Below, in pieces: positions 41,045 through 42,560 of a DNA stretch of 64,000 bases. The translations under genes were made by a program, and so were the position numbers. The notes under the pieces are model-generated. The model ran no database searches and was not told the origin of the DNA. It was given only the letters and a program-made list of their open reading frames with translations. Source of the stretch: Escherichia coli (GTDB lineage Bacteria > Pseudomonadota > Gammaproteobacteria > Enterobacterales > Enterobacteriaceae); NCBI RefSeq assembly GCF_024700885.2, contig NZ_CP117016.1. The stretch is one strand, 5' to 3'. Numbering within the stretch: position 1 is the stretch's first letter; every line of letters starts with the position of its first letter.

Positions 41045-41349
41045 TCGATAATACTTTGCTGTACAGCTGCAGGTTGCCAGGCAAGCAGGCATTTACCTAT
41101 TCCGGAGCGATAAAGCGAAAGGCTTTTTCCTTCATGGGAACGCACGCTGATAGTGGCTGATGACTCCACTTTCAAAATGTAATAAGCGCTGCCGTTATCA
41201 ATAATCCCCAGGTGACATAACAGCCCGGTGGTATCCATCAGTTGCGTCAAACGCGGTCGAGCCAGTTCCCGGAGATCCATCTTGCTTAACGCATGACCGG
41301 AAAGCTCCACCAGCCTGGTCCACAAACAAAAATTTTCCTGGTGATCAAG
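41045..41349 (-). pseudogene. rhmR: Internal fragment of the IclR-family regulator gene rhmR (yfaX), fused at its 3' side to rhmT
   Basis: Encodes LDHQENFCLWTRLVELSGHALSKMDLRELARPRLTQLMDTTGLLCHLGIIDNGSAYYILKVESSATISVRSHEGKSLSLYRSGIGKCLLAWQP (IclR effector-domain start), then reads out of frame into rhmT; no start codon. Confidence 0.5.
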
Positions 41350-41390
41350 GGTGACTGCTCCCCGCCCTGTCGGGCGAGGCTTCCCACTTC

Positions 41391-42560
41391 TTAAGCCGCA
41401 ACCGTCTGTGTGACGGATTTACGCTGGCCTCCATGGGCAGAAACGACGAGTCCCGCCGCTTGTAATTCCAGTATGCCCTTGCGTTTGATGTTGAGCGCCG
41501 CGTTGATATCGCGGTCATGTTCAACTCCACACTCTGGACACTGCCAGATGCGCTTATGTAATGGCATCTCCGACATTTTGTGACCGCAGCAGTGGCAGGT
41601 CTTCGAACTGGCGAACCATTGATCCAGTTTCACCAGATGCACACCTTTCTCTGTTGCTTTGTATTCCAGTTTTGTGATGAATCCAGACCATCCAGCATCG
41701 CCTATCGCACGAGCCAGATGGTGATTTTTCATCATATTTGCCGTTTTCAATGTCTCGACAATTACCGCTTGGTTTTCGTCAACAATTGCGCGAGATAACT
41801 TGTGCTGGAAATCGGCACGGGCACTGGCTACCCGTTCGTGAACGGCTGCAAGTTGTATTCTGGCTTTGCGCCTGTTTGCGCTCCCTTTTTTCTTACGGGA
41901 CAGTGCTTTCTGCTTCCGGCGCAGGTTGCGACTTGCATTGATTAGGTGGCGGGGACTGGCAATTTTATTGCCGTCCGATTTGATGACAAAATGCGCCAGC
42001 CCCATATCCAGCCCTGTCACATTTGATATCAGTGCGGGCTTTGCCGGCGCTTCCATCCCGTCGTCACAGAGTAACGACGCGTAGTATTTCCCGGTTGCGC
42101 TGCGGCTCAACGTGATACTTTTCAGCATTCCCGTAATTTCACGATGTAAACGCGCTTCAATCGGCAAGATTTTCGGTATTTTTATCGCACCATCAAGGAC
42201 TTTTATGCCAACACAATGATAGCTCGATTGTCTGCCGTGTTTACTTTTAAAGGTTGGTTTACCTGCTTTCAGTTTCGGATTGAAAAAGTTAGAAAAAGCC
42301 ACGTCGAGGTTAATTACCGCCTGCTGCAACGCAATAGAATCATATTCTTTAAGCCATCCATACCGGCGGGATTTCTTCGCCACTGCAAGCAGTGGTTTGA
42401 GGTCTTTACGCGGGTTTAAATTTACGCGGTGCCGCTGGTAAGAATGTTTCTTGATATGCAGAGCTTTGTTGTACGCAAAACGCACTGCACCGAACTGGGC
42501 GTTGATAAATTCAGCCTGTTCTGGTGTCGGGTAGATGCGTACTTTTGTTGCTCTTAACAT
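41391..42560 (-). CDS. tnpB: TnpB (OrfB) RNA-guided endonuclease of the IS200/IS605 family, 389 aa
   Basis: 389-aa ORF with C-terminal zinc finger CHCCGHKM...CPECG and RuvC-III-like DRDINAALNI; N-terminal OrfB region MLRATKVRIYPTPEQAEFINAQFGAVRFAYNKAL. Confidence 0.9.
   Translation of the reverse strand: MLRATKVRIYPTPEQAEFINAQFGAVRFAYNKALHIKKHSYQRHRVNLNPRKDLKPLLAVAKKSRRYGWLKEYDSIALQQAVINLDVAFSNFFNPKLKAGKPTFKSKHGRQSSYHCVGIKVLDGAIKIPKILPIEARLHREITGMLKSITLSRSATGKYYASLLCDDGMEAPAKPALISNVTGLDMGLAHFVIKSDGNKIASPRHLINASRNLRRKQKALSRKKKGSANRRKARIQLAAVHERVASARADFQHKLSRAIVDENQAVIVETLKTANMMKNHHLARAIGDAGWSGFITKLEYKATEKGVHLVKLDQWFASSKTCHCCGHKMSEMPLHKRIWQCPECGVEHDRDINAALNIKRKGILELQAAGLVVSAHGGQRKSVTQTVAA

Follow-up and report, generated by a model that had tools for sequence, protein, structure and literature searches.

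The stretch of Escherichia coli DNA analyzed here (64,000 nt of contig NZ_CP117016.1, assembly GCF_024700885.2; hereafter the window) contains a copy of rhmR, also called yfaX, that is interrupted by ISEc46, an insertion sequence of the IS200/IS605 family that is 1763 bp long and occupies 41351–43113 on the minus strand. The element carries tnpA, which encodes a transposase, and tnpB, which encodes a predicted RNA-guided endonuclease (Table 1). The segment from 41463 to 41335 on the minus strand, which begins within the 3′ end of tnpB and ends in the rhmR flank, very probably encodes the omega RNA (right-end RNA, reRNA) of the ISEc46 TnpB nuclease.

Omega RNAs are a well established class, of which the ISEc46 RNA is an ordinary and well supported member. 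In ISDra2, the TnpA target motif doubles as the transposon-adjacent motif (TAM), the reRNA takes its guide from the roughly 16 nt of flank that adjoin the right end, and the complex cuts the excision donor joint (TAM plus flank), after which homologous repair restores the element (Karvelis 2021, PMC8612924); a preprint (10.1101/2023.03.14.532601) appears to give the same model. The ISDra2 omega RNA has a 116-nt scaffold with stems 1–4 and a pseudoknot, as determined by cryo-electron microscopy, and omega RNA acts as a natural single-guide RNA (sgRNA) with a conserved pseudoknot (Nakagawa 2023, PMC10097598). Among the matches listed for literature mentioning ISEc46, no description of its RNA was found in the titles and abstracts, and these papers appear to be resistance or mobile-element inventories. 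A literature search on TnpB with a TTAG TAM found nothing relevant.

Table 1. Features of the ISEc46 copy in rhmR and their ISDra2 equivalents. Position −n is window position 41350+n, counted back from the guide; cells are the base-pair positions counted over 44 aligned sequences.
Feature	Window position	Strand	Position from guide	ISDra2 equivalent	Basis or remarks
tnpB, 389 aa, predicted RNA-guided endonuclease	42560–41391	−			Open reading frame list; stop codon 41391–41393
tnpA, 141 aa Y1 (HUH) transposase, divergent from tnpB	42617–43042	+			Pfam Y1_Tnp
Promoter-like site upstream of tnpB, TTGATA-16-TAAAAT	42589–42616	−			Consensus scan, 10/12; pattern match only
Left-end subterminal hairpin	43076–43097	−			Read from sequence; kept in left-end alignment
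TTAG adjoining left end: TnpA target motif and predicted TAM	43114–43117	−			In empty site
Predicted omega RNA scaffold, 113 nt	41351–41463	−			RNAalifold, pair counts, covariance model
Predicted 16-nt guide CCUUGAUCACCAGGAA, rhmR flank	41335–41350	−			First bases beyond right-end boundary; 20 nt would reach 41331
Stem 1-like hairpin, loop GGACU (helices 1 and 2)	41441–41461	−	−111..−104 / −98..−91	−116..−111 / −91..−86	8 pairs, 5 compensatory, 94–97% of cells paired
Stem 2-like helix (helix 3)	41433–41437 / 41383–41387 (span 41383–41437)	−	−87..−83 / −37..−33	−85..−80 / −36..−31	Encloses stems 3a and 3b; 5 pairs, 4 compensatory, 99.5% paired
Stem 3a-like helix (with stem 3b-like tip: helices 4 and 5)	41423–41429 / 41394–41399 (span 41394–41429)	−	−79..−73 / −49..−44	−77..−71 / −48..−42	Helices 4 and 5: 11 pairs, 8 compensatory, 97–99.5% paired
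Stem 3b-like tip	41412–41416 / 41402–41406 (within 41394–41429)	−	−66..−62 / −56..−52	Within −70..−49	
Stem 4-like hairpin, CCUCGCCC GACA GGGCGGGG (helix 6); right-end subterminal hairpin	41360–41379	−	Tetraloop −21..−18	Tetraloop −20..−17	8 pairs, 4 compensatory
Candidate pseudoknot 3′ strand, AGUC	41353–41356	−	−6..−3	−5..−3 with −103..−105	Partner: stem-1 loop GACU, 41449–41452, −102..−99

The element and its insertion site

Both ends of ISEc46 were fixed to the base by comparison with uninterrupted yfaX/rhmR (locus L001) and with a second ISEc46 copy (L003) at a site between yebE and ptrB. With a slash marking the point of insertion, the uninterrupted site reads TTAG/CCTTGATCACCAGG, or at greater length TTAG/CCTTGATCACC, and the interrupted locus, in the orientation of the element (minus strand), reads ...CGTTTTCTTAG / CGAAAAACGCC...left end...tnpA (reversed)...tnpB...GGGAAGCCTCGCCCGACAGGGCGGGGAGCAGTCAC / CCTTGATCACCAGGAAAATT.... 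The right-end boundary therefore lies at 41351/41350, with 41351 as the final base of the element and 41350 as the first base of the flank. ISEc46 is inserted 3′ of a fixed tetranucleotide, TTAG, and the empty-site comparison shows that the insertion in rhmR is free of target duplication.

A sequence-only reading of the window had placed the boundary at about 41350, which is correct within its precision, and its positions for the tnpB stop codon and the right-end hairpin (41360–41379) agree with the list of open reading frames and with the sequence, respectively. It had also proposed a flank-derived guide of roughly 16 nt; the origin and length are retained here, and the coordinates are moved by one base, to 41350–41335 instead of about 41349–41334.

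ISEc46 has the traits of the IS200/IS605 family, namely a Y1 HUH transposase, subterminal hairpins at both ends and no terminal inverted repeats; its name follows RefSeq, in which tnpA is labeled 'ISEc46 family transposase'. Full-length ISEc46 was found in 455 of 5426 complete E. coli genomes, with a median of one copy per genome, and the insertion in rhmR is common to 63 genomes. The stretch 41000–43400 is 100% identical to E. coli strain 1190, NZ_CP023386, which likewise has the insertion.

A conserved RNA structure at the right end

One genome per species was scanned for relatives of the element, which gave 80 loci with TnpB relatives of 63–99% amino-acid identity in Photorhabdus, Xenorhabdus, Serratia, Rahnella, Klebsiella, Pantoea, Vibrio, Shewanella, Idiomarina, Marinospirillum and other taxa. 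The 3′ end of tnpB was detectable in 79 of these loci, and in 71 of them conserved sequence reaches 41–58 nt past the stop codon and ends in ...G(C/T/A)AGT(C/T)AC, where unrelated flanks take over; of the other eight, some are truncated by a contig end and the rest have a degraded right end. ISEc46 itself follows this pattern, with conservation ending at ...GCAGUCAC and unrelated flanks thereafter. Pairwise identity is 0.93 over the final 16 nt inside the right end, as opposed to 0.26, the random level, over the first 16 nt outside, and 69 distinct flanks were present among 70 loci.

The secondary structure was analyzed in an alignment (A2) of 44 non-redundant 140-nt sequences anchored at the right end. 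RNAalifold predicted 35 pairs, 21 of them with compensatory changes, and recovered the same helices independently of pair counting. In the pair count, the 32 pairs of six helices were paired in 97.5% of 1402 cells, and changes on both sides affected 21 of the 32 pairs (172 cells). None of 500 shuffles reached any of the pairing or covariation measures, and sliding the 3′ partners by 1–3 columns left 36–57% pairing and 3–7 pairs with double changes. Of the 21 compensated pairs, 17 belong to helices 1–5, which are located within the coding region or directly downstream of it, so the covariation signal is independent of the right-end hairpin required by TnpA. Furthermore, G–U pairs make up 188 of the 1402 cells (13%); these would become A–C mismatches if the other strand were folded, which assigns the fold to the sense strand of tnpB.

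A covariance model (R1, from alignment A3) was built from only the 22 most distant relatives, which are 62–80% identical to the window, with the window itself excluded. The model matches the window over its full length at 41351–41463 on the minus strand (117.9 bits, E = 8e-23). Among 82 related sources it gave 77 hits, one in each locus hit, and every hit was on the strand of tnpB and stopped at the right end. A second match in the window (35033–35123, minus strand; 16.8 bits, E = 0.07) lies in GC-rich, coding-like DNA with no element features and was taken as chance. The sequence-only reading had predicted an omega RNA at the 3′ end of tnpB reaching into the rhmR flank and had looked to a conserved omega-RNA-like structure as the check. 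Such a structure is present according to R1, while Rfam gave no match, and the prediction is supported at the sequence level by the covariation, the boundary, the layout of TTAG, the intact TnpB and the agreement of the helices with those of ISDra2. Its extent from the 3′ end of tnpB to the right end also stands, and its span of about 150 nt is narrowed to a conserved scaffold of about 113 nt.

The scaffold, the 5′ end of which is assumed, overlaps tnpB codons 367–389 with their stop codon, together with the right end of 40 nt. The diversity of synonymous codons in tnpB is 0.17–0.19 over the last 30 codons, compared with 0.29–0.51 in all other 15-codon bins. A related observation concerns the C-terminal tail ELQAAGLVVSAHGGQRKSV of TnpB (codons 365–383, 41412–41468), which is nearly invariant in relatives down to 77% overall identity; the C-terminal domain of ISDra2 TnpB is poorly conserved and disordered (PMC10097598). 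The conserved tail coincides with stems 1–3 of the omega RNA, and the overlap of RNA and coding sequence would explain the invariant peptide.

The right-end hairpin that forms stem 4, also written CCCCGCCC-TGTC-GGGCGAGG, is likely to serve both TnpA, as DNA, and the omega RNA. Its loop carries an insertion of 13–15 nt, for example GTGGCGCTTTAGCGC, in relatives from Marinospirillum, Aliidiomarina, Pseudidiomarina and Halomonas (L069, L073, L076–L078 and L080); the insertion can form a small hairpin, which implies that stem 4 tolerates extension. An H-type pseudoknot between GACU in the loop of stem 1 and AGUC near the right end is possible and would stack on stem 1. Its 3′ strand is invariant; as it doubles as the TnpA cleavage site, it is not free to vary. 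Two other long-range pairings were considered. A 3-bp pairing from RNAalifold, GGC (A2 columns 16–18) with GUC (158–160), shows no covariation and was not adopted, and a pairing of ACUG (columns 21–24) with CAGU (156–159) was rejected, as its 5′ side varies freely and its 3′ side is constant.

TnpB and TnpA

All three Pfam domains HTH_OrfB_IS605, OrfB_IS605 and Cas12f1-like_TNB are present in TnpB, and the RuvC triad D185/E269/D351 and the zinc-finger residues C322/C325/C341/C344 are invariant in an alignment of 19 sequences. The ISDra2 TnpB chains 8bf8, 8exa and 8h1j match residues 4–380 (E = 3.6e-74); chains of the Cas12f family also match, weakly. Judged by these residues, ISEc46 TnpB is catalytically intact.

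TnpA, read from a TTG start codon, spans the entire Pfam Y1_Tnp profile (1–121 of 121, E = 6e-39), and its translation shows an HVH motif and the SRSY tyrosine. The Y1 transposase of ISEc46 has been called N-terminally truncated (PMC9956272); to judge from this reading frame, the reported truncation may be an artefact of the start codon.

The promoter-like site upstream of tnpB is a possible source of the tnpB/omega RNA transcript. The 56-bp spacer between tnpA and tnpB (window 42554–42616) holds an overlapping, back-to-back pair of strong promoter-like sites, of which the one on the plus strand, TTAACA-17-TATAAT, has 11/12 consensus matches. This overlap suggests that expression of tnpA and tnpB may be coupled or competing.

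Guide, target motif and proposed mechanism

The guide length of 16 nt was adopted from ISDra2 (PMC8612924). In uninterrupted rhmR the match to the guide reads TTAG/CCTTGATCACCAGGAA, so that TAM and guide match are contiguous, as expected of a target that arises after excision. TTAG belongs to the empty site and not to the element; it was found directly 5′ of the left end in 18 of the 20 loci with a locatable left end, with TTAA in the other two. The sole guide match within the window is the insertion site itself, where it is preceded by TCAC, the end of the element.

Transcription, processing, TnpB binding, cleavage and homing are proposed here by homology to ISDra2 and to Geobacillus stearothermophilus TnpB. 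Transcripts of tnpB would continue across the right end into flanking rhmR sequence. Their final 113 nt derived from the element would then fold into a TnpB-bound scaffold composed of stems 1, 2, 3a/3b and 4, probably with a pseudoknot, and the next 16 nt or so would act as the guide. The complex of TnpB and omega RNA would recognize 5′-TTAG followed by a guide-matching sequence, a combination that would exist only where the element is absent, either at the donor joint that TnpA leaves behind on excision or in an rhmR allele without the insertion. Cleavage of such a site would be followed by homologous repair from the copy carrying the element, which would restore ISEc46. The resident copy is not a predicted target, because its guide match is preceded by TCAC instead of TTAG.

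Comparison with known systems

ISEc46 would share with ISDra2 an RNA encoded at the 3′ end of tnpB and the right end, a guide derived from the flank, and a TAM (predicted here) that coincides with the motif targeted by TnpA on the 5′ side of the left end. The predicted architecture of stems 1–4 is that of ISDra2, and the helix positions agree within a few nucleotides (Table 1). Stem 1 differs in size, with 8 bp and a 5-nt loop in ISEc46 and 6 bp and a 19-nt loop in ISDra2, and the pseudoknot lacks covariation support in ISEc46. Further differences lie in the TAM (TTAG, predicted, as against TTGAT in ISDra2) and in gene order, since tnpA is divergent from tnpB in ISEc46 and co-directional in ISDra2. 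The nucleotide sequences are unrelated.

Before the guide function was known, non-coding RNAs termed sense overlapping transcript RNAs (sotRNAs) had been described for IS1341-type tnpB genes in haloarchaea (Gomes-Filho 2015, PMC4615843). Like them, the ISEc46 RNA would run in the same sense as tnpB and overlap its 3′ end. Compared with the Cas12f sgRNA, which joins a trans-activating CRISPR RNA (tracrRNA) and a CRISPR RNA (crRNA), ISEc46 has no CRISPR array, separate tracrRNA or spacer acquisition, and its guide is fixed by the site of insertion. A domesticated TnpB of the TldR type, marked by an inactivated or truncated RuvC, loss of the transposon ends and of tnpA, and a guide aimed at a host promoter, was ruled out, as ISEc46 retains its catalytic residues, its two ends and tnpA, and the guide matches only the insertion site of the element.

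Alternative explanations

The evidence for an omega RNA has to be weighed against a role of the same helices as single-stranded DNA structure of the right end, used by TnpA in peel-and-paste transposition. The ends of IS200/IS605 elements are recognized as top-strand DNA hairpins, helix 6 is such a subterminal hairpin with a near-twin at the left end, and DNA hairpins tolerate G–T pairs. However, helices 1–5 extend as far as 111 nt inward from the boundary, within the tnpB coding region or directly downstream of it, and have no counterpart at the left end, whereas their positions mirror those of the ISDra2 omega RNA. In addition, 44 of the 79 loci have no tnpA match in the retrieved DNA of up to 2 kb upstream, and the structure still scores well over the whole set of loci, although TnpA could act in trans. 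A purely DNA-based role of the helices is thus regarded as very unlikely. Still harder to credit is a transcription terminator or an mRNA-stabilizing 3′ structure. The GC-rich 8-bp hairpin 12 nt past the tnpB stop codon has the appearance of one, but it is followed by AGCAGTCAC with no run of T residues, and a terminator scan found none there; moreover, the four further covarying helices in the coding region and the exact coincidence with the transposon boundary would be left unexplained.

The omega RNA may instead be real in the family while the copy in rhmR is silent or non-functional, being untranscribed or unprocessed, so that no rhmR guide is made. The promoters are consensus matches only, and the element is usually present in a single copy in E. 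coli, as noted above, which would fit low activity. This is the most serious caveat to the assignment of an omega RNA at rhmR. On the other side, tnpB, tnpA, both ends and all helices of this copy are intact and 99–100% identical to copies at other E. coli sites, which implies recent mobility, and the sequence of the window fits the family covariance model over its full length. A silent copy is accordingly considered unlikely, while the most credible of these alternatives.

Several other observations also weigh against the omega RNA assignment. Transcription of the RNA in E. coli is predicted by homology, and both its 5′ end and the exact length of the guide are assumed from ISDra2. No curated model describes the RNA, as Rfam gave no match in a permissive scan of 40500–44000 on both strands (E ≤ 1). 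Folding of the single sequence was only modestly better than that of shuffles (z = −2.0 and −2.4), and since values near −2 are unconvincing alone, the case rests on the comparative data. Because TnpA requires the stem 4 hairpin and the terminal GTCAC in DNA form as well, conservation of these two features is not specific to RNA. Finally, the candidate pseudoknot, with 95% of its cells paired, shows zero covariation and has one pair broken (U–U) in 5 of the 44 sequences, and the GGC/GUC pairing competes with it for the same 3′ nucleotides.

Other copies, relatives and the rhm deletion

Isolated copies of the 38-nt tip of the right end (identical to 41351–41388 at 100%) occur on four E. coli plasmids (NZ_CP061751, NZ_CP073986, NZ_CP139810 and NZ_JBYQQI010000002; hits H52–H55), with no annotated feature under them; these are either element remnants or solo ends. 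E. coli plasmids often carry relatives, about 79–81% identical, that have tnpB but no tnpA (hits H4, H24 and H43–H49). Plasmids hold 379 of the 862 matched places, and some of the tnpB-only relatives are split by an IS630 insertion. TnpB proteins with 99% and 88% amino-acid identity to that of ISEc46 were found on short contigs of metagenome-assembled genomes assigned to Collinsella (L004) and Candidatus Paceibacterota (L006), respectively; these most likely reflect binning contamination and not true hosts.

The rhm operon of the window also has a deletion of about 1.7 kb, with its junction at 41024–41035 (compare L084, 2491–4217) and a 12-bp overlap. Lost are rhmD in full, 162 nt from the start of rhmT/yfaV and 289 nt from the end of rhmR/yfaX. 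The junction lies 327 bp from the right end of the insertion sequence, and the deletion is not obviously caused by it.

Significance

Conceptually the gain is small, since an RNA of this kind is expected for any TnpB borne on a transposon. For annotation, the analysis supplies a TnpB family that is unmatched in Rfam and widespread in Enterobacterales and marine Gammaproteobacteria with precise boundaries, a TAM predicted as TTAG and a structure backed by covariation, and a non-coding gene overlooked by pipelines based on open reading frames becomes annotatable. The last 23 or so codons of tnpB would be under a double constraint of protein and RNA, which matters when conservation of the TnpB C-terminus is read.

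ISEc46 TnpB is also a candidate native RNA-guided nuclease of E. coli that is directly testable in its own host. A joint and more tentative reading, to which somewhat less than an even chance is given, is that ISEc46 TnpB is an active native nuclease with a 4-nt TTAG TAM that cuts uninterrupted rhmR, acting as a natural drive or as a recombination barrier at rhm, and that the tail ELQAAGLVVSAHGGQRKSV, unusually conserved in the family, is held mainly by the overlapping RNA and less by the function of the protein. Of the other E. coli genomes with matches to the flanks, approximately 4,200 in number, most have an uninterrupted rhmR allele. If this reading is true, ISEc46 from the rhmR locus would be a drive element or a barrier to recombination at the rhm locus.

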